From: Planctomycetota bacterium
GTDB taxonomy: Bacteria; Planctomycetota; B15-G4; SIAN01
Assembly (NCBI GenBank): GCA_009691715.1
Contig: SIAN01000004.1
Span: 13,101 to 77,100, forward strand
Length of the DNA stretch: 64,000 bases
Direction: 5' to 3'
Shown: positions 20,590-53,400 of the stretch, one piece after another
Layout of the letters: every line of letters begins with the position of its first letter
Numbering within the stretch: the stretch's first letter is position 1
The notes under the pieces: generated by a model
The model's input: the letters and a program-made list of their open reading frames with translations, nothing else
Told to the model about the DNA's origin: nothing
The model's database searches: none
Program-made: the position numbers and the translations under genes

Positions 20590-20644
20590 CGGACCCTCAC
20601 GTGGGATTGCGGGCATCTCGACACACGCTGGGGTGCGGGAGGAA

Positions 20645-20688: not shown

Positions 20689-20861
20689 AAGGCGCCATCT
20701 AGATACCGCCCGTTTTCTTGATGTCAAGCCGTCGGTCGCCCGCTGAGCCGCCGCCATGAACTGAGGTACGGTTCCCCGCCGCTGCCGGCGTTGACGGGTG
20801 CGATGGGTCGCCGTCGAACGCCCGGTACCCTCGCGCCCCCGAATCCCCCAGGAGCCTGCCC

Positions 20862-21437: not shown

Positions 21438-21663
21438 GCCGGCTGCGGCACTTCGCCGTGCCACGCATCCGATCCTGACGCAACGATCGCGGGCGGCCCC
21501 TCGCAGCCCGTTGGCGCAGTCGCCGCGAGTCCGGCGAGTGGATTTCGAGTCGGGACGAGGAGGAGGTTCGAAGCCAACTCCCCAGAGAGTTGTCGAGAAT
21601 CTCCGACGAAGTCCCGGCTTGAAAGACGCCGCCCGCGCTGCTTTCCGATGCTTCGCCTGTCAG

Positions 21664-24168: not shown

Positions 24169-24396
24169 GCGCAGTCTCTCCAGGCGCGCCCGAGATGAAG
24201 CGGCGCAATGGGTTGCTCTTTCGGGCTTGAGGCGGCGCAGAGTAAAGCGACCCGTGTCCGGACGATCGCGCGCTCCTGCGTCGATTCGGCACAAGGGGCG
24301 CGCCACGCTGCGCCGCCGGCCCCGTGGCGCAATGGGACGAAGCTCGGGGACCGATGTTTGCGGTGGGCCGCCGCTTTCCTCCCGGAGGCTCGATTG

Positions 24397-27300
24397 ATGA
24401 AGCGACTTGGGCCTTGGCTCGTGGCCACGATCGTTGCGATCGGGTGTTTCGCCTGGTGGAGTTCACGCAAAGGCGACCCGCCACGACTCGCCCCGGCCGC
24501 TCCGCTCACCGCTGCCGACGCCGCCGCAGATTCGACCGCCGACTCGACCGCCCCCTCGATCGCGCCTGCTGCCGACCGCGCCACCGACCCGGCCCCCACC
24601 TCGAGCGACGCCATCGTCGCGGACGTGATCGGCACCGGGAGCCTGCGGATCGAAGGGCAAGTGGTCTTCGCCGCCGATGGACGCCCCGCCGCTTTTGCGC
24701 GGGTCCGCGCGTTCGACCGTTTCCCGGCCTTGACGCCACGCTCGATGCGCGGCGGCGCGGATGGCGTCGAGTCGGAACCGACGACGCACCGGCACTCCGG
24801 ACAAGCGGTCCACGACCTCGCCGAACGAGACGCCTCGAACTTCGCTCGGAACGAGGACTTCGACGACGCCACCGACGATGCGGAACGCACGCCGAAACCA
24901 CCCGCCGAGGCGCTCGCTGAAACGACCGCCGACGCGACCGGCGCTTTCGTCCTCGCCGGCCTCACGCGCGGCACGGTGCACGTCGATGCGATCGCCGAAT
25001 TTGCGTCGTGCGAACAGCCGCAGGTCATTTCGCTCACGGACGAGTCGACCGTCGACTCGATCCGGCTCCTGCTCACCGATGGAGCCGCGCTGCGCGGGCG
25101 CGTCGCCGATCCGTCCGGCGCGCCGGTCGCCGGAGCGCGCGTGGTCGCCACACCGCCCTTCGATCCATTCGCAATGTTCGCCGCCGGCGGAATGCAGATG
25201 CGCGAGCCGTGGATCGCGCTGACCGACGCATCCGGTCGCTTCGCGCTGCCGGGACTCGCGGCGGGTCTCACGCTCGACCTCACGGCCACCGCCACTGGCT
25301 TCGCACCATCGGCACACCAGAAGGTCGTGACGGCGCTGCGCCAGACCGTGCAAGCGGATCTGATCCTGCAGAAGAGCGGGCGCATCGACGTGATCGTGCA
25401 CGACTCTTCAGGCCAGCCGCTCACCAACGTTGCCTGCACGCTCGGCGCAGCCGAACTCAAGCTCGATGAGCTCGCGACCAGCGCGGAGTCGTTTCGCGGC
25501 ACGCGACGCCAACTGGACCCGCAGGGGCGTGCGACCTTCGAGGGACTCGCCGTCGGCAAGTGGCAGATCCGCATCGATCGCGCGCCATGGCTCGAAGCCA
25601 AGCGCGCGGTCGAACTGCGCGAGACGGGCGAGACGGCGACGGTCGAGTTTGTGGTCGAGCTCGGCAAGGAGCTGCAAGGGCGGGTCGCCGCCCGTGACGG
25701 CACTCCGCTCGCCGGTGCGCGCGTCACGGCCGTCGAGCCGCCCTCGATCATGAACGTGATGCGCGCCGCGCGCGGTTCTGGCCGCCGCCAGGCCACGACT
25801 GACGCCGACGGGCGCTTCCTCCTTTTGGGACTCGGTGCCGGGCAGTTCGACGTGACCGCTCGCGCCATCGGCTACGACGAGGCAACGGTCAGTGCAGCAG
25901 CCGGCGGCCCGCCGATCGAGATCGTGCTGCCGACGCGCGGCGCGTTCGAGGGCATCGTCATCTCGCAACAGTCGGGAAAGCCGCTCCACGAGTTCACGCT
26001 CCACCTCGAGCGCAAGAGCACCGGCGGTGGCGGCATGTTCGACGTCGCCGACATGCAGCGCACCGTGCCGCTCTCGCTGGCGTTCGCCCATGAGCAGGGC
26101 AAGTTCCGCGTCGCCGGTGTCGCGCCCGGCGAACTGCGCATCGCCATCACGGCTGCCGGCCACGGCCGCTGGCAGGGCGCCTGGTTCACGCTCGCGGACG
26201 GCACCACGCGCAAGGGGATCATCGCGACGCTTGGTCCGGAGGCCGTCATCGAGGGCATCGTCGTCGCCGCCGCGGACGGCGCCCCCATCGCCGGCGCGCA
26301 ACTGCGCCTCGTCGCTGCGGACCAGGCGATGATGCAGAAGCTCATCGCAGGCATGCTCGGCGACACCGCCGCCACCAGCGGCGCGGACGGCCGGTTCCGC
26401 ATCGGCGAGCTCGGCGCTGGATCGCACAAGCTCGCGGTGAAGAAGGACAGATTCGTCGAGACCGAGCCGCCTGCGATCACGCTCGCGGAGGGCGAGACTT
26501 CGGCGCTGCTGCGCATCGAGCTCGCGTCGGGTGCCGAGATCTTCGGCAACGTCGTCGACGCCGACGGCCACCCGCTCGCCGGCGCGAGCCTGATGTGCCA
26601 GGACATTGCACGCATGGCGATCCGATCGGCCAAGAGCGATGCCGCCGGCAACTACCGGTTCGAGGGTCTCGCGCCCGGCAACTTCGCGCTCACCCGCATG
26701 CCAGCGGAGATGGCGATCGGGAGCGACAAGTTCTTCGAGCAGATGCAGGGGCAGATCGAGACGCGCACGATCAAACTCAGCGCGGGCGAATCACTGCGCG
26801 TTGATTTTGGGGCGCAGATCAAAGGCAGCGCCGTCCTGGTCGGACGCGTCGTCTCCGGCGGAGCGCCCGTCCCCGACGCGCTGGTGCAGGTGATCGCCAG
26901 CGAGCAGGGCGGCAAAGTCGGCAGCGTGGGTGGCGGGGTGGCGATGGGCACGTGCGACCACGACGGTCGTTTCCGCGTCGAGCGCTTGCACGCCGGCCGA
27001 GCGTTCGCGCAGGTGAATCTCGGCGATCCAGGCGGCGGTGGGATGAACGCGGTGCTGGTGCCGGTCCTGCTGGAAGCTGGCGCTACGACCGAGGTGACGC
27101 TCGAGGTGCCGGCGGCGAGCGTCTCCGGCGAAGTCCTCGAGGTAGGAAGCCGCAAGCCGTTGGCCGGAATCGCGGTTTACGTTGGAGCAGCGCCCGACGC
27201 ACCGACGGCCGGCATCGAGATGGCGATGCGCCGCTCGCTTGCGGTGCGCACCGACGCGAACGGCAAGTTCCGCCTCGACCACGTGCGGCCGGGCCGCTGC

Positions 27301-27972
27301 CGGGTCGTCGCCGGCGCGGGCGATCTGCTCGGAGGCGGATCGAGCGATTACGGCGTGGGTTCGTCGCCGATCGTGGTTCCGGCCGTGGGCGCGGTCGATG
27401 CCGGCACGTTGCTGCTCGCACCCGCGGCTCGCATCAGCGGACAACTCGTCGACGGCACCGGCAAGCCACTCGCGCAAGGCTCGATCTTCCTGCGCGATGC
27501 TGCAACCGGCGGATACCTCGAGGAATGGAGCAGCACCTCGAGCGACGAGAACGGCGAGTTCGAGTACGCGGGCGTCCCCGAAGGCAGCTGGGATGTCGTC
27601 GCGCGCGCGCCGGGCTACGCGACGGCGGTGGCACGCGGGATCTCGGCGCGTCCAGGTGGAATCAATCGAACCCGCATCAAGCTTGTCGGCGGGACCGAGG
27701 TCTTCGCGCTCCTGAACGCGGTCCCGTTCGCAGACCTGTTGACGCTGTCGGCGGCAGTCGATGGGCCCGACGGAGCGATCCCGCTGACGCTGTTCGGACT
27801 CTCCGAGCTGGCGGATGCGATGCAGCAGCCATGGCAGCCCGATGTGGTGCGGCTCGGACGCTTCGGGCCGGGCCGCTACCGCGTTCACGGCCAGCTCCGC
27901 GGCACTCCTTTCGAGCAGACATTCGAGCTCGCTGGCGAGCCGGAACTGCGGATCCCGATCCGCTTCGATTGA
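24397..27972 (+). CDS. Large secreted protein with >=10 carboxypeptidase-regulatory-like (CarbopepD_reg) beta-sandwich repeats
   Basis: A GGAGG SD precedes the start. An N-terminal TM/signal segment is present. The motif ...G.V.D..G.PLAGA.V... recurs about every 90-100 aa (ALRGRVADPSGAPVAGARV, ELQGRVAARDGTPLAGARV, EIFGNVVDADGHPLAGASL, ARISGQLVDGTGKPLAQGSI). Confidence 0.7.
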   Translation: MKRLGPWLVATIVAIGCFAWWSSRKGDPPRLAPAAPLTAADAAADSTADSTAPSIAPAADRATDPAPTSSDAIVADVIGTGSLRIEGQVVFAADGRPAAFARVRAFDRFPALTPRSMRGGADGVESEPTTHRHSGQAVHDLAERDASNFARNEDFDDATDDAERTPKPPAEALAETTADATGAFVLAGLTRGTVHVDAIAEFASCEQPQVISLTDESTVDSIRLLLTDGAALRGRVADPSGAPVAGARVVATPPFDPFAMFAAGGMQMREPWIALTDASGRFALPGLAAGLTLDLTATATGFAPSAHQKVVTALRQTVQADLILQKSGRIDVIVHDSSGQPLTNVACTLGAAELKLDELATSAESFRGTRRQLDPQGRATFEGLAVGKWQIRIDRAPWLEAKRAVELRETGETATVEFVVELGKELQGRVAARDGTPLAGARVTAVEPPSIMNVMRAARGSGRRQATTDADGRFLLLGLGAGQFDVTARAIGYDEATVSAAAGGPPIEIVLPTRGAFEGIVISQQSGKPLHEFTLHLERKSTGGGGMFDVADMQRTVPLSLAFAHEQGKFRVAGVAPGELRIAITAAGHGRWQGAWFTLADGTTRKGIIATLGPEAVIEGIVVAAADGAPIAGAQLRLVAADQAMMQKLIAGMLGDTAATSGADGRFRIGELGAGSHKLAVKKDRFVETEPPAITLAEGETSALLRIELASGAEIFGNVVDADGHPLAGASLMCQDIARMAIRSAKSDAAGNYRFEGLAPGNFALTRMPAEMAIGSDKFFEQMQGQIETRTIKLSAGESLRVDFGAQIKGSAVLVGRVVSGGAPVPDALVQVIASEQGGKVGSVGGGVAMGTCDHDGRFRVERLHAGRAFAQVNLGDPGGGGMNAVLVPVLLEAGATTEVTLEVPAASVSGEVLEVGSRKPLAGIAVYVGAAPDAPTAGIEMAMRRSLAVRTDANGKFRLDHVRPGRCRVVAGAGDLLGGGSSDYGVGSSPIVVPAVGAVDAGTLLLAPAARISGQLVDGTGKPLAQGSIFLRDAATGGYLEEWSSTSSDENGEFEYAGVPEGSWDVVARAPGYATAVARGISARPGGINRTRIKLVGGTEVFALLNAVPFADLLTLSAAVDGPDGAIPLTLFGLSELADAMQQPWQPDVVRLGRFGPGRYRVHGQLRGTPFEQTFELAGEPELRIPIRFD

Positions 27973-28056: not shown

Positions 28057-29217
28057 TTGTCGATGTTGTCGCGTTCCGCGAGCGCAGCCCTGATCCTGTC
28101 CCTAGTCGGCGCCACGATCGCGTCGGCCCAGACACCCGCCCCGACCGATCAGGGCACGCCACCGGCCGCACCGGCCGCGGCGCCAGCAGCAGCAGCGCCG
28201 CAGGCCGCGCCGCAAGGCTCCCCGCGCCACACCGCGACGGTCACGCTCGGAACGGCGACGCTCACGCTCGAGCACGGCCAGCCGCCATGGAACGATCAAC
28301 GACTCGGCCAGATGGCGCAGATGGCGCAGCAGGGTCAGGCGTGGCGCATGGGCTCGGAGGGTGCGACGACCCTCGAAGTGACCGGCGGGCCAGTCTTCTT
28401 CGGCGACGAGCTGGTCCAGCCAGGTCGCTATGGCATGAACCTGCAGCCGGCGGGCGAAAACGCCTTCAGCTTCGTCGTGTTCGAGCCGCTCCACCTCGAT
28501 CAATCGCCGCAGATGCTCGGCGATGAGCCGAACCAGCTGATTCCGACCGTGTTCAAGGGCGACGCGGCCGATCTCACGCCAGCGCTGGTGCTCGACTTCG
28601 TCGCGGCCGGTGATACCGCGGCCTGCACACTGTCGTGGGGCCCGCTGCGTGCGAGCGCGCCGTTGGCGGCCGCCGGCATCTCGACGGCCGAGATCGAGCT
28701 GAACGGCAACCCGACGGACACCACTTGGTACCGCCGCGCGCTCGCCGAGGGCTTCGACTGCTCCAAGCCGATGATCGCCGGCAAGATCGACTTCGCGATC
28801 GACGAGCAGGATTGCTCGATGAACGTCTACGTCATGCTCGAAGGCGACCAACTCGTCGCCGTCATGCGCAATCGCGAACGCGAACAGGCCGAGGCGCAGA
28901 CCCTGTCGCTCGAAGAAGGCATGAAGCGATTCGACGCGGCGATCCAGCAGTTCGGCGAGCTGGCGGCGGCGCAGATCGCGCCGTTGAAGCGGCAGGCACA
29001 GCGTCAGCTCGTGAAGAACGAGCTGACGCTCGAGGACACCGTGAACCTCCCCGACAACTTGAAGTTCTCGGCACCGTGCGAGGCCGGCAAACCGGGCGCA
29101 CTGGCCTGCGAGATCTTCCAGACGCGCCGTTCGATCAATCTCGAGGTGCTGCTCGGCGGAAAGAAGGGCGTGATCCGGATCGACGAGAGCCTGTTCGCGC
29201 TGAAGAGCTCGTCCTGA
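28057..29217 (+). CDS. Secreted hypothetical protein
   Basis: A strong AAGGAGG SD precedes the start. It has a signal peptide (AALILSLVGATIASAQ) and a Pro/Ala-rich linker, with no recognisable domain. Confidence 0.55.
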   Translation: MSMLSRSASAALILSLVGATIASAQTPAPTDQGTPPAAPAAAPAAAAPQAAPQGSPRHTATVTLGTATLTLEHGQPPWNDQRLGQMAQMAQQGQAWRMGSEGATTLEVTGGPVFFGDELVQPGRYGMNLQPAGENAFSFVVFEPLHLDQSPQMLGDEPNQLIPTVFKGDAADLTPALVLDFVAAGDTAACTLSWGPLRASAPLAAAGISTAEIELNGNPTDTTWYRRALAEGFDCSKPMIAGKIDFAIDEQDCSMNVYVMLEGDQLVAVMRNREREQAEAQTLSLEEGMKRFDAAIQQFGELAAAQIAPLKRQAQRQLVKNELTLEDTVNLPDNLKFSAPCEAGKPGALACEIFQTRRSINLEVLLGGKKGVIRIDESLFALKSSS

Positions 29218-29240
29218 ATTGACGCTCCGAACGGCCGGAG

Positions 29241-30215
29241 TCACTCCGCCGGGTCGGTGGGTCCGTCGATCGCGCGCTCCTCGCGTGCGAGCAGATCGGG
29301 GCGCACGAGGCGCCAGAAGGTGGCCGGGACGTGGCGGAGCTTCCGCCGCAGCCCGGCCATCTGCGCTTTCAGGCGCGCCACGGCCAGCTGCGACGGCGTC
29401 GCCAGCGGACCTGCGGGCACATATCCGTGCTGCGAAAGCGCCTTGCCAGCAACGTGCTCGACCACCGCGATTTCGTCTTGCGTGAGCTCGCTGCGCCAGC
29501 GTTCGACACGGGACTTCTCAAGCGCGCCCTGCGCCCGGTCAAACCACCAGCGATCGGTCTTCTTCGCACTCGTCTCGAGCATCGCGGGCTCGAAGGCGAC
29601 ACCGACGAAGGCGCAAAGTCGTTCGAGTGCGCTGTCCGGCGCCGCGACCACGTCTTCGTAGCGGACGCGCAGAAAGCGCGGGTCGGCGGAGCACGCCTCG
29701 GCTCCCATGACGCAGGCGTTCCACGTCTGCGCATCTCCGAGCCGGCTGCCGCTGCCCCATGGCATGCGCTTCAGCGATGCGACGACGTCACGCGGATCGC
29801 GAACCAGATGGATCAGCCGCGCTTCGGGATACCAGTCGAGCAGCGTCCTGCTGGAGAGCGCGTGCTGCGGCGTCTTCTCGCCGCCGATCGGCTTGCCCTG
29901 CGCGCGCGAATAGAAGCGCAGCAGCGCCGCGAAAAACGCCGGATAGCTCACCGCCTCTTGCTGCAGGCAACCGCGCAACGCAGCGAGGTCGAGGCCGAGG
30001 CGGAGGATCCGGCGCGTCTCCAAGAACCGGTCGATTGCCCGCGCGCGACGCGCCGGATCGGCGAGGTCGCCGAAGACGCGCTGCCGTTGCGCCACCCAGT
30101 AGACGAAAAACGTCTCGTCGCAGAGCCCGATGCGCGAATGACGGTTCAGCATCGCCCGCAGCAGAGTCGTCCCGCTGCGCGGTGCGCCGACCACGAAGAG
30201 CAGCGGCTCGGCCAT
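29241..30215 (-). CDS. PAPS-dependent sulfotransferase
   Basis: The 5'-PSB motif FVVGAPRSGTT and the 3'-PB motif LIHLVRDPRDVVAS are present. The start ATG overlaps the stop of the upstream flippase gene (ATGA). Confidence 0.8.
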   Translation of the reverse strand: MAEPLLFVVGAPRSGTTLLRAMLNRHSRIGLCDETFFVYWVAQRQRVFGDLADPARRARAIDRFLETRRILRLGLDLAALRGCLQQEAVSYPAFFAALLRFYSRAQGKPIGGEKTPQHALSSRTLLDWYPEARLIHLVRDPRDVVASLKRMPWGSGSRLGDAQTWNACVMGAEACSADPRFLRVRYEDVVAAPDSALERLCAFVGVAFEPAMLETSAKKTDRWWFDRAQGALEKSRVERWRSELTQDEIAVVEHVAGKALSQHGYVPAGPLATPSQLAVARLKAQMAGLRRKLRHVPATFWRLVRPDLLAREERAIDGPTDPAE

Positions 30216-31486
30216 CACGCGCCTCCCGCGACTCGTCGCACCGGCAATGCCCGGTCGCGCCACGCCGCCGCGAATGCGGCGAGCGTCAGCAGCAGTCCAA
30301 ACCCTTCGGCCACAAGCAACGCCATCGCCGCACCGGCGACCCCAGACTGCCGCGTCCACCACGGGATCAGCGCCGCCAACGCGAGCGTGCCCGCCACCGA
30401 GCAGACGAGCTCGAGCCGGCTGCGACCGAACGCCAACAGCGTCATGCGCGCGTGGCCGCGGCAGGCCAGCAGGGGCAGCACCGCGACCAGCAGTCGCAGG
30501 CAGCTCGCGCTCTCCGCGTCGCAGAGCTCGGGCCGGAACAGGAGCCGCAGCAAGCCGTCGGCGTTCGCCGCGACGCAGAGCGCCAGCGCCAGCGTGCCGC
30601 CGACCGCGATCGCGGTCGACCGCAGCAGCAGCGGCTTCAGGATCGCGCGCGGACCGCGGGCAGCGCGCGAAAGACCGGGAAAGAGATTGGTGAAGTACAT
30701 GGTGAGAACCGCCTGCAGCACCATCATCACGCGGTGCGCGACGGCATATCGGCCCACCGCCTCCTTCGGAACGAGGTGCCAGAGCAGCAGCGTCGCCAGG
30801 AACATGCGCAGCGCCCAGAGCAGCTGCGACACTCCCATCGGCGCCGCCTCGCGCAGCATGGCCGTCGCTCCAGGCGCAGGACCGATCGCAGATCGGCCGC
30901 CGATGCGCCCGCGGCGCCACGCCCACTGCGCCAGCAGCGCCGCACCGCCGACCGCCACCACTTCGAGCCACGGCAATCGAGCGAGGTCGCCGCTGCTGCG
31001 GACGAGCGCGGCGGTGAGCAGCAGGAAGAGCCCCTGGCGCAGGACGCCGGGCGCCGCGATCCAGTGCATCGCACCGCGTCCCTGGAACGCCCACGGCACC
31101 AGCCACGGCAGCAGAAGCAGGGAGGCGGCGTAGACCGGGAGCAACGTGCCAAGCTCCGGCCCCAGCCAGCCAGCGGCGCGCGCCAACCATGCGAGCGCAA
31201 CGAGCAGCACGGCCGCGCCGCACTGCAGACGCAGCACCGTCGGCGCGAGGCGCTGCTCCGCCGTCGGATCGCGCGCCACCTCGCGCGCCGCCAGCAGCGG
31301 AAAGCCGAGCTCGACGAAGAGCGCGGCGAACATCATGGCCGACAGCGACACCTCGACAGCGGCGTAGTCCGCAGGCGCGAGCCGGTTCGAGAGCAGCCAG
31401 ATCGCCACGAACGACAGCAGCCGCTGCGCTCCCTCGCCGGTCAGCAGCACGAAGAGCCCGCGCATCGATGCGAAGCGGGGTTGCAT
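30215..31486 (-). CDS. Polysaccharide flippase (Wzx/MOP-family polysaccharide biosynthesis protein)
   Basis: It has about 12 predicted TM helices. The layout is typical of oligosaccharide-unit flippases. Confidence 0.6.
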   Translation of the reverse strand: MQPRFASMRGLFVLLTGEGAQRLLSFVAIWLLSNRLAPADYAAVEVSLSAMMFAALFVELGFPLLAAREVARDPTAEQRLAPTVLRLQCGAAVLLVALAWLARAAGWLGPELGTLLPVYAASLLLLPWLVPWAFQGRGAMHWIAAPGVLRQGLFLLLTAALVRSSGDLARLPWLEVVAVGGAALLAQWAWRRGRIGGRSAIGPAPGATAMLREAAPMGVSQLLWALRMFLATLLLWHLVPKEAVGRYAVAHRVMMVLQAVLTMYFTNLFPGLSRAARGPRAILKPLLLRSTAIAVGGTLALALCVAANADGLLRLLFRPELCDAESASCLRLLVAVLPLLACRGHARMTLLAFGRSRLELVCSVAGTLALAALIPWWTRQSGVAGAAMALLVAEGFGLLLTLAAFAAAWRDRALPVRRVAGGA

Positions 31487-31489
31487 CGC

Positions 31490-32632
31490 TCAGCCGGAGC
31501 CGGCGCGGCCGGTGATGAGCGCGCGAGCGACGGGGGACTTCAGCAGCTCGTCCTTGAACCGCTCGAACAGCAGTTGGTAGCCCGCTGGATTCGGATGGTG
31601 GTCGATGTCGCTCACGCGCAGCGGGCGCAGATCAGGTACGTCGGCGAAGGTCGACACCAAGTCGAGCGTCACGATCCCGCGCTCGCCCAGCGCCGCGCGC
31701 GCGGGCTCGAAACGCGCCTCAAGCCGCGCCACCTCGCCGACCGCCGGCAGCAGCACGACCGCCAGCTCCGCCCCACCCGCGCGGCAGCTCTGCTGCATGG
31801 TTGCGAGCGCCCAGCGCACGAACTCGTCGCTGAAGGGAGCCAGCTTGGCGTCGGTCACGGTCGGAGCGTCGTCCTGCTTCAGTGCGGCACGCGCCGCCAG
31901 TTCGCGCAAGTACGGGTATTCGAGGTCGATGCCGTCGTGCACGAGGCACGCCAGATGGTGGCCCCAGATGCGCGTGACCGACAGGTCGGAGAGGCCGACC
32001 ACCACGACGTCGGGATGGAACCGCGGCAACGCCTCCTCGACCACCTTCACGAACTGCGTGGTGCGGTAGCCCTCGACCGCGAGGTTCATCAGCTCGAAGC
32101 CGACGACACCGTCGCCGACCTGCGACTCGTTCAACCACCGCTCCACGTTGGGCTCGAGCGCCTGGCCGAACGGAGCACCGAGTCCGCGCGACAGCGAGTC
32201 GCCGACCCAGACGAGGCGGCGCACGCCCGGCGTGCGCGCCTCAGGGTAGTCGCGATCGAAGAGGCCGGCGCGGTTGGTCACGACCGTCGCCGTCGGATCC
32301 GCGGGATCACCCAGCGAAGGCTTCGGCCGATAGAGCAGGAACGACTCGAGCCGCTCCTGCGTCGACCCGCGTGCCAGCGCCTTGTCCCACAGATCGTCGG
32401 TGTTGCCGGCGTGGATCGTGTCGCGGCTCGCGTTCAGCAGTTCGTCGTAGTAGCCGGCCAGCAGCCCGAGTTCGTCGTCGGCATTCGCGCCGTGGTAGAC
32501 CCACTCGCGCACTTCGCGCTGGATCGCCTTCGGGATCGCGGTGATTCCATTGGCGGGGTGCGCGCGCTCCACCGCAAGCAACGCCAGCAGCGTGGCCGTC
32601 GAGGCGACCACCGACTTCGCGAACGGCGTCAC
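31490..32632 (-). CDS. SGNH/GDSL hydrolase-fold protein (DltD/AlgX-like transferase/esterase)
   Basis: It has a GDSL block VWVGDSLSRGLG and a distal catalytic block DHHPNPAGY. A GTG start overlaps the stop of the adenylating enzyme (GTGA). An N-terminal signal/TM anchor is present. Confidence 0.6.
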   Translation of the reverse strand: MTPFAKSVVASTATLLALLAVERAHPANGITAIPKAIQREVREWVYHGANADDELGLLAGYYDELLNASRDTIHAGNTDDLWDKALARGSTQERLESFLLYRPKPSLGDPADPTATVVTNRAGLFDRDYPEARTPGVRRLVWVGDSLSRGLGAPFGQALEPNVERWLNESQVGDGVVGFELMNLAVEGYRTTQFVKVVEEALPRFHPDVVVVGLSDLSVTRIWGHHLACLVHDGIDLEYPYLRELAARAALKQDDAPTVTDAKLAPFSDEFVRWALATMQQSCRAGGAELAVVLLPAVGEVARLEARFEPARAALGERGIVTLDLVSTFADVPDLRPLRVSDIDHHPNPAGYQLLFERFKDELLKSPVARALITGRAGSG

Positions 32633-34242
32633 GGCGACGGCTCCGACGACTTGGCCTTGAGCGCCTGGTAGTCGACTTTTTCGGTCGAGGTGCGCGGCAG
32701 CGTGGCGTGGAACACGAAGCGATCGGGGCTCATGTAGGGCGGCAGCGCGTCGGCGCACCACTTCTTCAGCGCGATGATCGACAGCGGCGGCGTGACCGGC
32801 GCGACGTGGGCGTCGATGCGGACGCCAGCGGCCGAGTCGGGCAGGGAGATCACCGCGGCCTCGCGTAGAGCTGGATTGCGTTGCAGCGCCGATTCGACCT
32901 CGCCGAGCTCGATCCGGTAGCCGCGCCGCTTGACCATGCGATCGCGGCGGCCGACGTAGACGAAGCCCTCGCCATCGACGTGACGGACGACATCGCCGGT
33001 GTTGTACCAGCGCCGACCCGCACGGGTCTGGAACACGTTCGCGTCGAGGTCGGGCCGCCCGAAGTAGCCCTGGAACAGCGACGGTCCCGCGATCCAGAGC
33101 AGCCCCTCCGCGCCCTTCGCGACCTCGACCTGCTGTTCGTCGAGGACCAGCCCATCGCAGTGCGAGCAGAGCGGCCCGATCGGGTAGGGCCGCGTGCGCT
33201 CGTCGGGTACCGGCAGCGGGATCTCGGCGTAGTTGCAGACGTTGGTCTCGGTCGGTCCGTAGAGATTCCAGTAGCGCGGTCGCGGAAGGAGTCGCGTCAG
33301 CCGGCGCAGTCCCGGCACCGGGAAGACCTCGCCCGCGAAGAGCACGTGGCGCAGCGCCGAGAGATCGAGCGTGTCGAGCTGCCCGAACTCCGCCATCAAC
33401 GACAGCACCGACGGCGTCGAGTACCAGATCGTGAGGCGCCGGTCAGCGGCGAAGCGCGCCAGCGCCTTCGGGTCCTTGCCGAGCTCCTCGCCCACTAGAT
33501 GGAGCGTCGCGCCGTGCTTCAGCGCCACGTAGAGGTCGAAGATCGACAGGTCGAAATGGAACGGCGCGTGGCTGGAGAAGCGATCGTCCGCGGTCGGCGC
33601 GTAGAGCTCGCTGCACCAATCGACGAACGAAAGCGCGTTCTCGTGGGTGAGCGTCACGCCCTTGGGCACGCCGGTCGAGCCGGAGGTGTAGAGGATGTAC
33701 GCGAGGTCGTCGCGGCGGCGAGGGGATGCCAGCTCGGCGAGCGGCGCGTGCGCCAGCGCGGCGGCGAAGTCGTGCGCGCCTAGCGGGAACGGATGCATGA
33801 CGTTGGCGTGCGCCGCGGCGGAGCCCGTGGCGCTCATCGGCACGCGCACGAGCAGTTTCGGCAGCGTTCCAGCCGGCCACTCCGCGAGCACGTCGTGGCG
33901 CGCCTCGCCGAGGAACAGCGCCGCCACCTTCCCATCGCGGTGAATCGTCGCGTTGCGCGCGGCCGGTCCGTGCCAGTCGACCGGCACGTAGCCGGCGCGC
34001 GCCTTCATCGCACCGAACAGCACCGTGACGCTCGCCAGGCCCTTCGGCAGGCAGAAACCGACACGATCGCCTGGCACCACGCCGTGCGCGCGCAGGAACC
34101 CCGCGACTCGCGAGGCCGCAAGGTCGAGCTCGCCGTAGGTGAGCGTGCGGCCGTCGGGCGCGACGATCGCGATGCGTCCTGGGTCGCGCCTTGCGGACGC
34201 CTCAAGCAGGTCGGCGAGGCTCGCAGTGGCGGCGCCGGCCAT
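32629..34242 (-). CDS. Carrier-protein-dependent adenylating enzyme (DltA-like AMP-binding ligase)
   Basis: It contains the A-domain core motifs LAYILYTSGSTGVPKGV (A3), NLYGPTE (A5), YNTGD and GRRDRMVKRRGYRIELGEVE (A8). The start was verified at MAGAATAS. Confidence 0.8.
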   Translation of the reverse strand: MAGAATASLADLLEASARRDPGRIAIVAPDGRTLTYGELDLAASRVAGFLRAHGVVPGDRVGFCLPKGLASVTVLFGAMKARAGYVPVDWHGPAARNATIHRDGKVAALFLGEARHDVLAEWPAGTLPKLLVRVPMSATGSAAAHANVMHPFPLGAHDFAAALAHAPLAELASPRRRDDLAYILYTSGSTGVPKGVTLTHENALSFVDWCSELYAPTADDRFSSHAPFHFDLSIFDLYVALKHGATLHLVGEELGKDPKALARFAADRRLTIWYSTPSVLSLMAEFGQLDTLDLSALRHVLFAGEVFPVPGLRRLTRLLPRPRYWNLYGPTETNVCNYAEIPLPVPDERTRPYPIGPLCSHCDGLVLDEQQVEVAKGAEGLLWIAGPSLFQGYFGRPDLDANVFQTRAGRRWYNTGDVVRHVDGEGFVYVGRRDRMVKRRGYRIELGEVESALQRNPALREAAVISLPDSAAGVRIDAHVAPVTPPLSIIALKKWCADALPPYMSPDRFVFHATLPRTSTEKVDYQALKAKSSEPSP

Positions 34243-34246
34243 CGCC

Positions 34247-34534
34247 TCACGTCCCCCGCTTGCGCCGCACCAGCGCCGCGATGTCGGCGATGCGGTCGAA
34301 GTGCTCGACGCCGGCTTCATGCGCCTCGACTTCGATCGAGAAGCGTTGCTCGACGAACGACACGACCTTCAGCGTCGCCACCGAATCGAGGATGCCGCCG
34401 GTGCGCAGCGGCGTGTCGTCGCGCAGATTGGCGGCGCTCTCGCCCGGCAGGAACTCCGCCAAGATGAAGCGCCGCAGCTCGTCGGCGATCTCGACGGATG
34501 GGTCGCCGGGCTGATTCTTGTTGGTCGTGTTCAT
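34247..34534 (-). CDS. Acyl/aminoacyl carrier protein (DltC-like)
   Basis: The 95-aa protein carries the phosphopantetheine attachment motif GGILDSVATLKVVSFVE. It lies 4 nt upstream of the adenylating enzyme. Confidence 0.75.
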   Translation of the reverse strand: MNTTNKNQPGDPSVEIADELRRFILAEFLPGESAANLRDDTPLRTGGILDSVATLKVVSFVEQRFSIEVEAHEAGVEHFDRIADIAALVRRKRGT

Positions 34535-34609
34535 GGGGCGGTGATTCTGCGGGTTGGTGGTGGCGCGGGCAATCGTCGTCCCGCGCTGCGTCGCCGTCCG
34601 CGGCCGCGG

Positions 34610-35923
34610 TCAGCCGACCTTCCACCAGGTCAGCAGCTCGATCCAGGCCGCGAACGACTGCGCGTTCCACATCGACCAAAGGACGGTCAGGAGTGTGAGC
34701 GTGCCGGCGATTCCGAGCGCCCGGCGCACTCCGGTCGGCGCCGCGGCTCCGCTGCCGCGGCGCAGTTCGAACGCGAGGTTCACCATCACCAGCACGCCCA
34801 AGATCGACCAGAAGGCGACGTCGGTCGAGCGCAGCAGGAACCTGCCGGTCAGGAAGAAGGTCTGCGCCGCATGCAGGAACCAGGTGACGACGAAGACCAG
34901 CGCGGTGGCCTGGATCTGCGCCCGCTTGTCGCCCAACTTGCGCCAGCGGAAGTAGGCCGGGAACCAGACCAGCTTCACCATGAAGTCCTTCCAGTAGATG
35001 TTGATCCGGCGCCAGAAGTCGGTCAGCGATGACGAAAGCAGCCAGCTCCGATGCGTCGGCGGCAGGTCGTAGCCGAACAGATGCAGCAGCCCGATCACGA
35101 AGTGGAAGGTGCCCGACAGGCGCAGGTAGAGCAGGTAGACCCGTGCCATGCAGACCAGCAGCGCGCCGAGGCTGGTGATCTCGTACGGATCGGCGTTCCA
35201 TTCGGTCGCGTTGTAGAGACGCAGGTAGATCAGCAGTTGCACCAGCCCGCGCGTCATCGAGGCGACGCCCTCCTGCGCGATCAGGTTCTGGTCGCGAGCC
35301 AGGAAGCTCTTCTTCAGCGTGTGGAAGTCCACGACCGGGAAGAGCAGGCAGCCCCAGTTCGGCAGCATGAAGCAGTAGGCGAGGAACTCCGAGAGCGCCG
35401 GCGGCTCCTTCATGTGGCGCCGGTCGTAGAGCCAGATCGGCAGCCGGAACAGGAACAGCGAACCGACCAGCGGCCAGAGTTCGTCGGGCAGGCCGGGCAG
35501 CCAGGCGGCGCGGCCGGCGACACAGGGAGCCGCAAGCAGCAGCGTCCACGTCACGCGCCAGCGCTGCGGCATCGCGCTGCGGCCGATCGCAAAGAAGCCG
35601 AGGCCGAGCGCAATCAGCAGCGCACCCGTCAGCGGTCCGGCGATCCACGGCAGCGCCGCCAGCGACAGCAGAACCCAGAACGGCTCCTTAAGCCGCAACG
35701 GCAGCCAATAGTGCAGCGCGAACCCGCCGGCCGATGCGACGCTCACGCGCCAGAAGCCTTCGCCGAAGAGCTCGTGCAGCTTGAACGCGCGAAACACCAC
35801 GAGCAGCAGCGCGATCTCGGCGACGAGGACGGCGAACGTGCGCGGATCGCGGCGGCAGCGCTGAGCGCGCGCGATGTCCAACGCGCTCGCGCTGGCGTCG
35901 ACCGAACCGGTCGCCACACTCAC
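34610..35923 (-). CDS. MBOAT-family membrane-bound O-acyltransferase (DltB/AlgI-like)
   Basis: It is a multi-TM protein with the FWRRINIYWKDFM motif characteristic of MBOAT (cf. FWRRWHISL) and a conserved His. A GTG start overlaps the acyl-CoA dehydrogenase stop (GTGA). Confidence 0.75.
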   Translation of the reverse strand: MSVATGSVDASASALDIARAQRCRRDPRTFAVLVAEIALLLVVFRAFKLHELFGEGFWRVSVASAGGFALHYWLPLRLKEPFWVLLSLAALPWIAGPLTGALLIALGLGFFAIGRSAMPQRWRVTWTLLLAAPCVAGRAAWLPGLPDELWPLVGSLFLFRLPIWLYDRRHMKEPPALSEFLAYCFMLPNWGCLLFPVVDFHTLKKSFLARDQNLIAQEGVASMTRGLVQLLIYLRLYNATEWNADPYEITSLGALLVCMARVYLLYLRLSGTFHFVIGLLHLFGYDLPPTHRSWLLSSSLTDFWRRINIYWKDFMVKLVWFPAYFRWRKLGDKRAQIQATALVFVVTWFLHAAQTFFLTGRFLLRSTDVAFWSILGVLVMVNLAFELRRGSGAAAPTGVRRALGIAGTLTLLTVLWSMWNAQSFAAWIELLTWWKVG

Positions 35924-37065
35924 AGACCGAGCCCGCGGGCGATCAGGTTGCGCTGGATCTCGCTGGTCCCGGAATAAAGCGTGCTGCCGACCGCGTCGCG
36001 CAGCTCGCGCTCGAGCTCGTACTCGGTCATGTAGCCGTAGCCGCCGAAAACCTGGATCGCGTCGAGGCCATTCTTCACGAAGCAGTCGGAGACGTGCAGC
36101 TTGGCCAGCGCCGCCTCAACCGTGCAGTCGCGCCCCGCCTCCTTCATCCGTCCGATCCGGTAGACGAGCGGGCGGCAGGTGTCGATCCGCAGGCGCATGT
36201 CGACCATCCGGTTGGCGACCGACTGGAACTTGCCGATCGCCTGGCCGAACTGCCGGCGCTGGCGGGCGTGGGCCACGCAGCGCTCGAGCTGGCGACGCAT
36301 CACGCCGAGGCAACTGGCGAGGATGCAGCCGCGCTCCCACTCCATCGACGACTCGAACACCGCGACGCCACGCCCTTCGCGGCCGAGCCGGTCGGCGACC
36401 GGCACGCGCACGCCTTCGAACACGACTTCCGCCATCGGCGAGGTGCGCAGCCCCAGCTTCTCGATCTTCTTGCTGATCGTGACCCCCTTCGCATGGGCGT
36501 CGACGATGAAACCGGTCACCCCCATCGCGCCAAGCTTCGGGTCGATCGTGGCGTAGGCGACGATCACGTCGGCGACCGGCGCGTTGGTCACGAACATCTT
36601 GGTGCCGTCGAGCACGTAGACGTCGCCGTCGCGCCGCGCACGCGTCCGCATCGCGAAGACGTCGGAGCCGGAGTCGGGCTCGCTCGCACCATTGGCGCCG
36701 ACCTGCGAGCCGTCGATGAGGCCGGGCAGCCAGCGCGCGCGCTGCTCGGGCGTGCCCCACTGCACCAACGGCATCGTGTTGGTCCAGAGGTGCGCGTTCA
36801 ACGAGAACAGCAGCCCCTGATCCTTGGCACCGTAGCCGAGTCCCTCCATCACCGCGATCACCTCGGTGATCGGCAGCCCGAGCCCGCCAAGCTCCTTGGG
36901 CACCGGCATCGCCAGCACGCCGAATCCGGCGGCCGCCTTCCACGCCGCGCGATCGAACGTCTCGTCACGGTCGGCCGCGATCACGTCGCCCGCGAGGTGG
37001 CGGCGCGCGAAGTCGGCCGCGGCGTCGTGCCACTCGCGCTGCGCATCGTTGAATTCGAGGTCCAA
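35920..37065 (-). CDS. Acyl-CoA dehydrogenase family protein
   Basis: All three ACAD domains are recognisable: N-terminal helical, middle beta (GSDV...) and C-terminal helical (QVFGGYGYMTEYELERELRDA, SGTSEIQRNLIAR). Confidence 0.85.
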   Translation of the reverse strand: MDLEFNDAQREWHDAAADFARRHLAGDVIAADRDETFDRAAWKAAAGFGVLAMPVPKELGGLGLPITEVIAVMEGLGYGAKDQGLLFSLNAHLWTNTMPLVQWGTPEQRARWLPGLIDGSQVGANGASEPDSGSDVFAMRTRARRDGDVYVLDGTKMFVTNAPVADVIVAYATIDPKLGAMGVTGFIVDAHAKGVTISKKIEKLGLRTSPMAEVVFEGVRVPVADRLGREGRGVAVFESSMEWERGCILASCLGVMRRQLERCVAHARQRRQFGQAIGKFQSVANRMVDMRLRIDTCRPLVYRIGRMKEAGRDCTVEAALAKLHVSDCFVKNGLDAIQVFGGYGYMTEYELERELRDAVGSTLYSGTSEIQRNLIARGLGL

Positions 37066-37326
37066 GGGCGCTCCTCGGGCACAAGCGGTTCGTTCCCGCC
37101 ACGACCGGATGGGCGCCGCGTTTTAGCCGCAGCGGCGCCGCTTTCCCCGATCGGCGGGCCGGGTACCACGACTGCAGACGGCCGCGCCACTTCCGGGTGA
37201 AGGTCCGCATCGGCGTCGGTAACGAGCCCCCGAGTCGCCCGCAGCGTCTCGCGCCACCCGCCGTGCGGTCACGGTCGACAGGCGGCACGCCCGTTGCCGA
37301 CTGTCGCGAAACCCCGAGGCCCGATC

Positions 37327-38943
37327 ATGACCGCCAAGACGCTCCACTTCCGTTCCGAGGCGCGCGAGAAGCTCCTCCGCGGCACGACCGCGCTGACGAA
37401 CGCCATCCGCGTGACGCTCGGTCCGCGCTCGAAGTGCGTGCTGATCGAGCGGAAGTGGGGCGCGCCGCTGGTCTGCAACGACGGCGTGACGATCGCCAAG
37501 GAATTCGAGCTGCCCGATCCCGAGGAGAACCTCGGCGTCCGCGTCCTCCGGCAGGCGGCCGAGCGGACCGGGGACGCCGTCGGCGACGGGACCAGCACCG
37601 CAACCCTCCTCGCCCATGCCATCTACTCGGAGGGGGTGAAGAACGTCGCCGCCGGCGCGAACGCGATCGACCTGAAGCGCGGCATCGACCGCGGTCTCGT
37701 CGCGGCCATCGCCGCGCTCAAGGCGCTGTCGCGGCCGGTGAAGAGCCGGAAGGAGAAGGTCCAGGTCGCCACGATCTCGGCCCACAACAACCCGCGCACC
37801 GGGGAACTCGTCGCGGATGCCGTGGAGAAGGTCGGCGGCGAAGGCGTCATCACGGTCGAGGAGGCGAAGGGCACCGAGACGACGTTGGAAGTCGTCGAGG
37901 GCATGCAGTTCGACCGCGGCTGGCTCTCGGGTTACTTCGTCACCGACGCGGAGAAGCCGGACGTCGTGCTCGAAGATCCTCTGATCCTGCTGCATGAGAA
38001 ACGGATCACCTCGGTGAAGGACCTGCTGCCCCTCCTTGAACAGGCGGCGAAGAGCGGCCGGCCGTTCCTGATCATCGCGGAGGATGTCGAAGCCGAGGCT
38101 CTCGCAACGCTGGTCGTGAACCGGATCCGCGGGACGCTGGCCTGCGCTGCCGTGAAAGCGCCAGGATTCGGCGATCGCCGGCGCGAACTGCTCGAGGACA
38201 TGGCGATCCTGACCGGCGCGCGCATGGTCTCCGCCGATCTCGGCATCGCGCTCGAACACGTCAAGCTCGGCGAGCTCGGCAAGGCGCGCCGCGTCCTCAT
38301 CTCCCGCGATCACACCACGATCATCGGCGGCGCCGGGAAGCGGTCCGCGATCGACGCGCGCGCGCAGCAGCTGCGGACGCAGTGCGAGGAGGCGACCAGT
38401 GACTGGGACAAGGAGAAGCTGCGCGAGCGGCTCGCGAAGCTGGCCGGCGGCGTCGCCGTGATCCGCGTCGGTGCCCCGTCCGAAACCAAGATGAAGAGCC
38501 TGAAGGAGGTGTTCGAGGATGCGATCAGCGCGACCAAGGCGGCGGTCGCCGAGGCCATCGTCCCTGGCGGCGGACTCGCCCTGATCCGGCTCCAGGAGAC
38601 CGTCCTGCGCGAGGCCGTCGCCTGCGATGGCGACGAGCGCACCGGCGTACGGATCCTCGCGAAGGCGCTCGAAGCGCCAGCACGGCAGATCGCCGAGAAC
38701 TCCGGCGTCGAGGCCGGCGTGATCGTCCAGGAGATGCGCACCGGATGCGGCGGTCGCGGCTTCGATGCGGCGCGCTGCGAATGGGTCGATCTGTTCGAGG
38801 CCGGGATCATCGACCCGACCAAGGTGCTGCGCATTGCGCTCGAGAACGCCGCCTCGGTCGCCGGCGTGCTGCTGCTGACCGAGGCAGTCCTGACCGAGAT
38901 CCCGGAGCAGAGGCAAGAGCCGGTCGCCGCACCCACTGACTGA
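37327..38943 (+). CDS. groEL: Chaperonin GroEL (Hsp60)
   Basis: It has the canonical MTAKTLHFRSEAREKLLRG N-terminus and the motifs GDGTSTATLLA and IVPGGG. A Gly/Met-rich tail is absent, and no groES is adjacent. Confidence 0.95.
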   Translation: MTAKTLHFRSEAREKLLRGTTALTNAIRVTLGPRSKCVLIERKWGAPLVCNDGVTIAKEFELPDPEENLGVRVLRQAAERTGDAVGDGTSTATLLAHAIYSEGVKNVAAGANAIDLKRGIDRGLVAAIAALKALSRPVKSRKEKVQVATISAHNNPRTGELVADAVEKVGGEGVITVEEAKGTETTLEVVEGMQFDRGWLSGYFVTDAEKPDVVLEDPLILLHEKRITSVKDLLPLLEQAAKSGRPFLIIAEDVEAEALATLVVNRIRGTLACAAVKAPGFGDRRRELLEDMAILTGARMVSADLGIALEHVKLGELGKARRVLISRDHTTIIGGAGKRSAIDARAQQLRTQCEEATSDWDKEKLRERLAKLAGGVAVIRVGAPSETKMKSLKEVFEDAISATKAAVAEAIVPGGGLALIRLQETVLREAVACDGDERTGVRILAKALEAPARQIAENSGVEAGVIVQEMRTGCGGRGFDAARCEWVDLFEAGIIDPTKVLRIALENAASVAGVLLLTEAVLTEIPEQRQEPVAAPTD

Positions 38944-38954
38944 ACGAAACGGTC

Positions 38955-38972
38955 TCCGCGCAACCGCGCGGG
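38955..38972 (+). terminator. GC-rich hairpin downstream of groEL
   Basis: The hairpin tcCGCGCaaccGCGCGga lies 12 nt after the groEL stop, with no U-tract. Confidence 0.3.
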
Positions 38973-39021
38973 ACTGGAGCACGGTGCCCGCGCAACTGCG
39001 TGGGCTACAAGGAGGAATCCC

Positions 39022-42527: not shown

Positions 42528-42699
42528 CCGGAGCGACCTCAGAGTGCCTGACAGAATGGACGCGTGACGCCGAGGCCAAGCGAGGGCACCTGGGGCGAGG
42601 AGACCGAAGCAGGCGACTCTGAAGAGTCGCCGATGGAGGTCGACGAAGTCCTGGGTGACCGCAGCCAGCCAAACGTAGTGGACCTTCTGTCAGGCACTC

Positions 42700-45176: not shown

Positions 45177-45180
45177 GCGA

Positions 45181-53323: not shown

Positions 53324-53400
<77 letters not shown>

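Follow-up and report, generated by a model that had tools for sequence, protein, structure and literature searches.

What would a carrier-protein-dependent acylation route of the Dlt kind be doing in a planctomycete, and which acyl group would it move? These questions are raised by seven minus-strand genes at positions 29241-37065 of the stretch of DNA analysed here (64,000 nucleotides of contig SIAN01000004.1, assembly GCA_009691715.1, from a Planctomycetota bacterium; hereafter the window), which in gene order encode a predicted acyl-CoA dehydrogenase family flavoprotein (ACAD), a membrane acyltransferase of the MBOAT fold, a small carrier protein, an adenylating enzyme, an SGNH protein, a Wzx-type flippase and a sulfotransferase. 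Among bacterial MBOAT/SGNH pathways, Dlt is the only one said to use a carrier protein, the others lacking one (PMC12148441, 2025). An earlier note on this DNA had recognized Dlt logic in the gene set, combined with an ACAD that acts, as in PltE/PltL-type pathways, on a carrier-bound substrate, and had predicted an unusual acyl group. Our analysis supports this core idea, based on the proline-type code of the adenylating enzyme and the co-conservation of the genes, and gives the acyl group a name: this code and the homologies of the carrier and the ACAD point to L-proline oxidised on the carrier. We consider it reasonably probable that the genes specify an acylation route across the membrane of the Dlt kind, supplied with its acyl donor by a thiotemplated proline-oxidation module.

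Genes were called from third-position GC content (GC3 frame analysis) and translation, in a window with about 70% G+C. Each of the seven translations is identical to one of the consecutive GenBank entries MSR46020.1 to MSR46014.1, deposited under 'MAG: Planctomycetes bacterium' (MAG, metagenome-assembled genome), and the contig is annotated as Planctomycetota, which replaces an earlier guess of Myxococcales. The public names are, in gene order, 'acyl-CoA dehydrogenase', 'hypothetical protein', 'acyl carrier protein', 'amino acid adenylation domain-containing protein', 'SGNH/GDSL hydrolase family protein', 'hypothetical protein' and 'sulfotransferase'. The genes are chained through overlaps or gaps of at most 4 nucleotides (nt), plus a single 75-nt gap. 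Read directly from the sequence, the junctions comprise a GTGA overlap between the ACAD stop and the MBOAT start (35923..35920), four nucleotides (GGCG) separating the stop codon of the carrier gene from the ATG of the adenylating enzyme, a second GTGA overlap between the adenylating enzyme stop and the SGNH start (32632..32629), a 3-nt gap between the SGNH and Wzx genes, and a Wzx/sulfotransferase junction reading CGTGATGGC, which gives a 1-nt overlap (TGATG) or, with a GTG start, a GTGA overlap. The coupled chain described in the earlier note is borne out, including both GTGA overlaps and the 4-nt gap; the ATGA that it had placed at 30215 has to be corrected to the last junction given, which is still coupled. 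The 75-nt spacer between the MBOAT and carrier genes (34535-34609, minus strand) is the sole non-coupled junction and forms a GC-rich hairpin (-27.2 kcal/mol with RNAfold); the corresponding 67-nt gap of the 67%-identical locus L001 also folds (-22.9). This hairpin may have a part in processing or stability, or may simply reflect a GC-rich sequence. At the 3' end of the operon, a convergent gene (DUF2911) follows at a distance of 23 nt. A scan of positions 28900-37500 gave no promoter-like site and a terminator-like count not above that of shuffled sequences, a result which is uninformative at high GC.

Predicted loading and oxidation of proline

The stand-alone adenylating enzyme (32629-34242, minus strand, 537 residues; Pfam AMP-binding and AMP-binding_C) scores 334 bits against the amino-acid adenylation model TIGR01733 of NCBIfam, over its cut-off, and 257 and 249 bits against the DltA models NF003417 and TIGR01734, whose cut-offs are 476 and 560. 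Its best single-domain match in the PDB, over the full length, is PltF (6o6e_B, E 6e-86), which serves pyoluteorin synthesis as L-proline--[prolyl-carrier] ligase. The ten Stachelhaus positions, taken from the HMMER alignment to PltF and located with what we take to be the GrsA numbering, give the specificity code DLFYLALVCK, equal in nine of ten positions to the DLLYLALVCK of PltF; all seven loci checked by hand have one of these two codes, four being identical to PltF. The protein therefore resembles the stand-alone adenylating enzymes of PltF/PltL/PltE-type modules, and is predicted to be specific for L-proline and distinct from the D-alanine ligase DltA. The earlier note had conceded that its proposal would weaken if this were an ordinary D-alanine DltA, a question that can be answered in the negative, since the code is of the PltF type and the DltA scores fall far under their cut-offs.

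An ordinary Dlt D-alanylation system, or an O-acetylation system of the AlgI/PatA type, with the ACAD as an unrelated neighbour, is what automatic annotation would suggest (JGI labels many homologues 'DltB' or 'AlgI'), and DltA structures do appear among the weaker PDB matches of the adenylating enzyme. Besides the DltA score (257 against 476 bits) and the code, however, PltL, PigG and Bmp1 are closer to the carrier than DltC is, the ACAD gene extends over the start of the MBOAT gene and is conserved along with the module, and both carrier and adenylating enzyme would be superfluous with acetyl-CoA as donor (PMC12148441). We regard this explanation as very improbable.

The free-standing carrier protein (34247-34534, minus strand, 95 residues) has its phosphopantetheine site at Ser51, within GILDS. 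Its PDB matches are headed by the Bmp1 acyl carrier protein (ACP; 6cxt_A, 7e-10), followed by 2my5, PltL (2e-4) and PigG (5e-4), with DltC at 0.013; against the DltC model of NCBIfam it reaches 19.5 bits (cut-off 68), and prolyl carriers score higher. These best relatives (Bmp1-ACP, PltL, PigG) place it among the type II prolyl carriers. A motif, DDTPLRTxGxLxS, is kept in seven loci, the residue preceding the serine being Asp in six and Ser in L005. Based on the code and on these homologies, the adenylating enzyme would activate L-proline and load it onto Ser51. In NCBIfam the carrier scores 110.8 bits (cut-off 130) against NF052616 (ACP_for_OlsHI, an aminolipid-associated ACP). A lead towards OlsH/OlsI ornithine lipids was rejected: the carrier is under the cut-off, no GH3 or alpha/beta-hydrolase gene is found in the operon with Pfam, and OlsH requires no ACP (PMC12493201).

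The ACAD (35920-37065, minus strand, 381 residues from a TTG start, MSR46020.1; Pfam Acyl-CoA_dh_N/M/1) is a predicted prolyl-S-carrier-protein dehydrogenase. Its highest NCBIfam scores are for PigA (431 bits) and the RedW prolyl-PCP (peptidyl carrier protein) dehydrogenase (411 bits), the next acyl-CoA enzyme scoring 268; both values are under the equivalog cut-offs (500 and 650), and by these scores it is a member of the clade and an orthologue of neither protein. The best PDB match is AnaB (4irn, E 1e-117, 396 bits, 46% identity, ungapped over 380 residues), followed by PigA (5zw0, 4e-89, 302 bits) and Bmp3 (6cxt_B, 2e-85). The segment SMEWERG, which we take to hold the catalytic Glu, is identical to that of AnaB. 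The matches to AnaB, PigA and Bmp3 assign the protein to the ACAD-family prolyl-S-carrier dehydrogenases, and with it the operon has the three components of thiotemplated pyrrole formation, namely an ACP together with an ACAD and an adenylase specific for proline (PMC10849742). By homology, the flavoenzyme would oxidise the prolyl-S-carrier. Since PltE, RedW, PigA and Bmp3, the majority of the characterised members of the clade, all perform a four-electron oxidation (PMC10849742), we favour pyrrole-2-carboxyl-S-carrier as the product, to which we give somewhat better than an even chance; the two-electron product, delta-1-pyrroline-5-carboxyl, appears appreciably less likely.

All three components have their best or near-best matches in the modules PltF/PltL/PltE, RedM/RedO/RedW, PigI/PigG/PigA, Bmp4/Bmp1/Bmp3 and AnaC/AnaD/AnaB. 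These serve as starter modules for natural products: pyoluteorin in the case of PltF/L/E, prodiginines for Red and Pig, and anatoxin-a for AnaB/C/D. Unlike such pyrrole and dehydroproline starter modules, the operon has no polyketide synthase, nonribosomal peptide synthetase, halogenase or condensation partner, and its product would be passed to an MBOAT-SGNH pair within a glycan locus. The one precedent known to us for O-transfer onto a sugar hydroxyl is reportedly offered by CloN1/CloN2/CloN7, which are said to place pyrrole-2-carboxyl on noviose in clorobiocin and coumermycin; that system reportedly differs in being cytoplasmic and soluble, with unrelated acyltransferases and a small-molecule acceptor.

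The membrane proteins and conservation of the cassette

The second gene (34610-35923, minus strand, 437 residues), annotated as hypothetical protein EXS13_02960, has a product of DltB-like size and architecture whose assignment comes from its fold. No relevant match was obtained in Pfam (E up to 10), in NCBIfam, or when the family profile was run against PDB sequences. An AlphaFold2 (AF2) model built with 34 homologues (predicted local distance difference test, pLDDT, 87.6; predicted TM-score 0.85) was compared with the PDB using Foldseek, the top match being DltB (8jem_A, E 1.2e-8, TM-score 0.64/0.67), followed by 6bug_C and later by HHAT, PORCN, LPCAT3, MBOAT7, DGAT1 and ACAT; ranks 1-29 are all MBOATs, and non-MBOAT proteins appear from E >0.4. 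The MBOAT call made in the earlier note rests, then, on the fold and on no hidden Markov model (HMM). The other families in its Pfam list fared unequally: Acyl-CoA_dh, AMP-binding, Lipase_GDSL_2, Polysacc_synt and Sulfotransfer_3 were found, the carrier's match to PP-binding (PF00550) was not significant (E 0.031) and MBOAT gave no match.

Residues invariant in the alignment of the 34 homologues include H274, H281, N308 (in FWRRIN) and H351 (in TWxLH), among others. N308 and H351 are 43 residues apart, compared with 47 for His289 and His336 of DltB. Comparable Asn/His-His pairs occur in other MBOATs (DltB 289/336, ACAT1 421/460; PMC11035591), and from the sequence pattern we infer that N308/H351 is their counterpart. 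Judging from the fold and these invariant residues, the loaded carrier would dock on the cytoplasmic face of the MBOAT, with the acyl group passing the membrane via Asn308 and His351.

The SGNH protein (31490-32632, minus strand, 380 residues; Pfam Lipase_GDSL_2) has an N-terminal hydrophobic helix, a GYYxxL motif at residues 60-65, a GDS motif with Ser146 and a D-x-H block ahead of HPN. Its AF2 model is less confident (pLDDT 73, with residues 46-87 below 50), and in Foldseek it retrieves generic SGNH esterases and transferases, with PatB at rank 10; DltD and AlgX are absent from the top 50 fold matches, AlgJ is likewise not singled out, and there is no DltD-family match in Pfam. The earlier label of DltD/AlgX-like has to be widened to a generic SGNH fold. 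We hypothesize that this membrane-anchored protein would take the acyl group on Ser146 and esterify an extracytoplasmic acceptor.

To follow the genes across bacteria, relatives of the MBOAT were collected from one genome per GTDB species, and co-occurrence was counted by running HMMs, built from seven-locus alignments, against the open reading frames (ORFs) of the best 80 species-level loci. The MBOAT and SGNH genes are adjacent in 76 of the 80 loci, and at least 12 loci have both in one ORF. Such fusion (the Rosetta stone argument) is the strongest evidence that the two proteins act together, and the adjacency likewise speaks for the MBOAT being functionally paired with an extracytoplasmic SGNH partner. 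The MBOAT-like family comprises 709 clusters at 50% identity with E <=1e-30 (2685 at E 1e-3); among its best 150 representatives (50% identity) most have lengths of 820-960 residues, and Pfam, applied to five of them, detected a GDSL domain at the C-terminus in four. The split arrangement of the window is the minority architecture, the top representatives being mostly fusions.

Relatives of the MBOAT occur in at least 313 species genomes, mostly of Acidobacteriota and Planctomycetota, and also of Gemmatimonadota, Burkholderiales and Rhodanobacteraceae; nearly all of the genomes listed are MAGs, the exceptions being three Singulisphaera isolates. In six loci inspected by hand (from Planctomycetota, a delta-proteobacterial MAG, Bryobacteraceae, Vicinamibacterales, a Joint Genome Institute (JGI) metagenome and Eiseniibacteriota), ACAD, MBOAT, carrier, adenylating enzyme and SGNH protein are found together, one locus having a rearranged gene order and two SGNH copies. 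A proline-type code (DL[LFM]Y.ALVCK) is present in 60 of the 80 loci, overwhelmingly as DLLYLALVCK, the code of PltF. The ACAD accompanies this code in 49 of the 60 loci (35 of 43 where both flanks reach at least 6 kb), and is found in only two of the 20 in which no proline-type enzyme could be detected, both of them short and truncated (5.6 and 9.4 kb). Because of this difference (49/60 against 2/20), the ACAD can be said to be co-conserved with the proline enzyme, a check that the earlier note had proposed and that turned out in its favour.

All five genes are present in 48 of the 80 loci, and the set spans Planctomycetota, Acidobacteriota, Gemmatimonadota, Burkholderiales and delta-proteobacterial MAGs, with a shuffled gene order. 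By these counts, the conserved unit is made of five genes (ACAD, MBOAT, carrier, adenylating enzyme and SGNH protein). This five-gene core is an ancient, mobile cassette, to which Wzx and sulfotransferase are local additions: orthologues of the window's Wzx, sulfotransferase and DUF2911 genes lie beside the cassette in four of the 80 loci, all of them close relatives, and the Wzx orthologue does so also in L001, a distribution by which Wzx and sulfotransferase are classed as lineage-specific accessory genes. Of the seven-gene combination originally described, it is thus the five-gene core that is conserved. The function of the whole cassette is a prediction, drawn from strong comparative evidence.

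A different version of the cassette is found in seven Acidobacteriaceae MAG loci (L026, L033, L035, L038, L040, L045 and L049), which keep MBOAT, SGNH protein and carrier and have no ACAD. Their adenylate-forming enzyme is a different one, with the code AHAPFALS-K; since Asp235 is missing, its substrate is probably not an amino acid. As the adenylating enzyme is swapped in these seven loci, the relay appears to be modular with respect to the acyl group.

A possible shuttle tyrosine and the oxidation state of the acyl group

Several observations weigh against the proposed pathway, and they concern the membrane steps, the acyl group and (discussed in the following section) the acceptor. The MBOAT assignment rests on a predicted fold with a TM-score of about 0.65 and 13-14% identity, and the Pfam model PF03062 misses all 34 aligned members of the family. 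Additionally, the acyl relay of bacterial MBOAT-SGNH systems runs via an acyl-tyrosine in an FxYxxF motif, located at the C-terminal end of DltX or at that of the MBOAT past two extra transmembrane helices (PMC12148441); in DltX this motif is FLYFGF (PMC11035591). Neither arrangement is seen here. The MBOAT's C-terminus, LLTWWKVG, is conserved, and in the family alignment it has W or Y, no invariant Tyr and no FxYxxF on two extra helices; no DltX-like ORF (25-90 residues with an FxYxxF-type C-terminus) was found in 28900-39000, and in L001 and L005-L008 the gaps between adjacent cassette genes, of at most 68 nt, leave no room for one. A candidate is nonetheless present elsewhere. GYYxx(L/I/M) follows the N-terminal helix in 71 of 76 SGNH partners, and the fused proteins are arranged as MBOAT core, two extra transmembrane helices, ERGYYENL and SGNH domain, with ERGYYENL sitting topologically at the C-terminal shuttle position of PatA/AlgI (by comparison with PMC12148441). 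Because the known shuttle sites are absent and this motif recurs in SGNH partners and fusions, we put forward the hypothesis that the shuttle tyrosine has been relocated to the SGNH partner, where the juxtamembrane GYYxxL tyrosine may stand in for the FxYxxF shuttle of DltX/PatA. GYYxxL and FxYxxF are alike only in the Tyr and in a hydrophobic residue at +3, and the GYY segment has a pLDDT below 50, at which its geometry relative to Ser146 is uninformative.

As for the acyl group, AnaB, the closest solved relative of the ACAD (about 95 bits over PigA), is reportedly a two-electron oxidase that stops at delta-1-pyrroline-5-carboxyl, which makes the pyrrole assignment uncertain. The ACAD is absent nearby in 11 of the 60 proline-type loci, e.g. 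in L028 and L047, both with full flanks, and some Planctomycetota, including the Singulisphaera isolates, keep the proline enzyme with no ACAD or carrier within 8 kb. On the chemical side, pyrrole-2-carboxyl thioesters are poor electrophiles, and three successive transfers may be slow. The AnaB relationship and the 11 loci would both fit a relay that moves proline in another oxidation state, either delta-1-pyrroline-5-carboxyl (dehydroprolyl) or plain L-prolyl, the ACAD being in the latter case otherwise employed or limited to some lineages. Nevertheless, most characterised clade members (PltE, RedW, PigA and Bmp3) are four-electron enzymes (PMC10849742), NCBIfam ranks PigA and RedW first, a cyclic imine ester would be labile, hydrolytically as well as chemically, for a three-step relay, and the ACAD is here translationally coupled to the MBOAT; we consider such a relay unlikely, if still a serious competitor to the transfer of pyrrole-2-carboxyl.

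The Singulisphaera genomes present some further particularities. Two MBOAT copies per genome were recovered for Singulisphaera sp. Ch08 and GP187 and one for PoT (loci L073, L075, L077, L080 and L087), and L075, L077 and L080 each have two SGNH genes and a proline-code adenylating enzyme. Since the pathway behind ACP_for_OlsHI, the nearest NCBIfam model of the carrier, was described in Singulisphaera, these genomes may have their carrier gene at another place.

Compared with known systems, the cassette is like Dlt in its stand-alone adenylating enzyme, its small carrier, the size of its MBOAT (437 residues against about 415 for DltB) and the membrane helix at the N-terminus of its SGNH protein. 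It differs from Dlt in that the predicted substrate is proline and not D-alanine, in the added ACAD acting on the carrier-bound substrate, in lacking DltX or FxYxxF, in an MBOAT too divergent for PF03062 and an SGNH protein outside the DltD family, in its hosts, which belong to diderm phyla without teichoic acids, and in the frequent MBOAT-SGNH fusion. PatA/PatB, AlgI/AlgJ/AlgX and WssH/WssI share with it the MBOAT and SGNH pair and the Gram-negative-type hosts, and the fused forms carry, like PatA/AlgI, two extra transmembrane helices followed by a conserved Tyr motif (PMC12148441); unlike in the PatA/AlgI type, the donor would be a carrier-protein thioester and not acetyl-CoA, GYYxxL lies on the SGNH protein and the acyl group would be a heterocycle. 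Neither the MBOAT nor the SGNH protein of the cassette is covered by a model of NCBIfam (June 2026). In the literature searched we found no description of an MBOAT/prolyl-carrier/ACAD/SGNH combination, absence from the searched texts being no proof, and the searchable literature yielded no pyrrole-2-carboxylated or dehydroprolylated polysaccharide, lipopolysaccharide (LPS) or lipid.

We tentatively propose, with confidence a little short of even, that the cassette is a second carrier-dependent MBOAT-SGNH pathway after Dlt, which places a pyrrole-2-carboxyl (or cyclic-imine) ester on surface glycoconjugates of diderm bacteria through a GYYxxL shuttle on the SGNH protein, and that this amounts to a major modification of the envelope, overlooked until now, in Acidobacteriota, Planctomycetota and Gemmatimonadota as well as some Proteobacteria (709 clusters, and species genomes numbering at least 313). 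It would be a counter-example to the view that MBOAT-SGNH pathways other than Dlt lack a carrier (PMC12148441), and, if true, the starter-unit chemistry of natural products (proline to pyrrole on a carrier) would have been recruited for cell-surface decoration. A pyrrole-type group would alter surface charge, hydrophobicity, ultraviolet absorbance and susceptibility to enzymes and phages, in phyla that are abundant in soil and freshwater but poorly cultured, and about whose envelopes little has been learned. In practical terms, the first three steps involve soluble proteins, which makes a mass-shift assay straightforward, and the fused MBOAT-SGNH proteins offer a single-polypeptide system for trans-membrane acyl relay.

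The acceptor and the genomic surroundings

What the acyl group would be transferred to has to be judged from the accessory and neighbouring genes. The MOP-family (Wzx-type) flippase (30215-31486, minus strand, 423 residues) matches Pfam Polysacc_synt with 94 bits. The predicted sulfotransferase (29241-30215, minus strand, 324 residues), of the type using 3'-phosphoadenosine-5'-phosphosulfate (PAPS), matches Sulfotransfer_3 with 118 bits and Sulfotransfer_1 with 48 bits, has weak similarity to NoeE in NCBIfam and an N-terminal sequence without evident signal peptide or transmembrane segment. Its translation contains PRSGTT and RDPRD, which we take to be motifs of this family, the former presumably the 5'-phosphosulfate-binding motif (5'-PSB). 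ATP sulfurylase is encoded 9 kb away from the operon (19110-20300, minus strand). On the other side, upstream of the operon, a glycan-synthesis block (39533-47823, minus strand; Pfam and NCBIfam assignments) encodes a family 2 glycosyltransferase (GT2), a polysaccharide deacetylase, a GT4, a flavin adenine dinucleotide (FAD) oxidoreductase, a flippase-like LPG_synthase_TM protein, a GT2 like polyprenyl-phosphate-hexose synthases and a PMT_2 GT-C. In L001 the part of this block from GT2 to GT2 has the same order and runs straight into the ACAD gene, without GroEL, the PMT_2 gene being outside the stretch fetched. Other sulfotransferases, GT4s, Hepar_II_III-like proteins and CysNC/CysD flank the cassette in the Vicinamibacterales and JGI loci (L006 and L007).

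Wzx, a cytoplasmic PAPS sulfotransferase, ATP sulfurylase and the glycan genes point to a sulfated, acylated glycoconjugate, and the glycan block is probably the source of the acceptor. From this context, the acceptor would probably be a glycoconjugate made by the adjoining GT2, GT4, deacetylase and GT-C proteins, flipped by Wzx and sulfated by the PAPS sulfotransferase, so that the product would carry both sulfate and a proline-derived ester. The set of FAD oxidoreductase, flippase-like protein, GT2 and PMT_2 protein also adjoins the cassette in nine Acidobacteriaceae loci (L020, L022, L026, L029, L035, L038, L040, L045 and L049), and it may make the acceptor sugar. This set recurs in distant phyla, with both the proline/ACAD and the variant-adenylase cassettes. 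The FAD protein beside GT2 had been considered as a pointer to carotenoid glycosides (CrtN/Q/O-like); this lead was dropped, NCBIfam placing the protein in the uncharacterised PRK07208 group, and its similarity to CrtI and HpnE is confined to the N-terminal FAD fold.

The last of the points that weigh against the proposal is that, as far as the window was annotated, it showed neither a Wzy polymerase nor genes for export (OPX/PCP), because of which the acceptor may be other than a classical polymer. Since, in addition, the cassette stands alone, outside glycan clusters, in two loci (L005 and L008), a lipid or LPS acceptor is possible. The neighbouring polyprenyl-phosphate-sugar synthase GT2, flippase-like protein and PMT_2 GT-C also fit here: three-component sets of this kind typically serve to modify lipids or existing glycoconjugates, and not to build polymers. 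In the same sense, eukaryotic MBOATs acylate lipids, and the nearest NCBIfam model of the carrier is an aminolipid-associated ACP. The acceptor could then be a lipid of the membrane or a glycolipid of small size, such as lipid A, an aminolipid, or the glycoside of a hopanoid or carotenoid; another option is that the SGNH protein works as a hydrolase and free pyrrole-2-carboxylate is simply exported. However, every characterised bacterial MBOAT and SGNH pair acylates an envelope polymer (PMC12148441), in the window, as in L001, L003, L006 and L007, the cassette directly adjoins genes for glycosyltransferase, deacetylase, Wzx and sulfotransferase, and hydrolytic export would be wasteful of ATP and FAD turnover. 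Taken together, we judge a lipid acceptor or export of the free acid to be distinctly unlikely, more so than a change in oxidation state, and retain the surface glycoconjugate as the proposed acceptor.

The acylation operon and the glycan genes are separated by a divergent gene for a full-length GroEL (37324-38943, plus strand; 781 bits in NCBIfam), beside which no groES was noted, the flanking ORFs being unscreened. As GroEL is absent in the 67%-identical L001, where the GT2 runs into the ACAD gene, its gene looks to have been inserted here, dividing what was a single longer operon. Around the ATP sulfurylase there are three tandem paralogues of 773-880 residues with type I phosphodiesterase/alkaline-phosphatase-superfamily domains (13754-24306), between which no APS (adenosine 5'-phosphosulfate) kinase was found; together with the ATP sulfurylase, they may serve a sulfate or phosphate-ester metabolism feeding the sulfotransferase. 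A protein of 1254 residues (24208-27972, plus strand), with repeated CarboxypepD_reg/prealbumin-like domains, has an orthologue at the same place in L001, downstream of the DUF2911 gene.

Farther from the operon, beyond the glycan block, the window encodes an 852-residue B12-binding radical SAM protein (48265-50823, minus strand) and an ORF with a metallo-beta-lactamase domain and a D-2-hydroxyacid dehydrogenase domain (51136-53418, minus strand). The 5' end of this stop-to-stop frame is overlapped by a tRNA-Pro(CGG) gene (53325-53402, minus strand), and the true start of the ORF therefore lies further in. The SelB selenocysteine elongation factor is encoded at 54814-57204, also on the minus strand.

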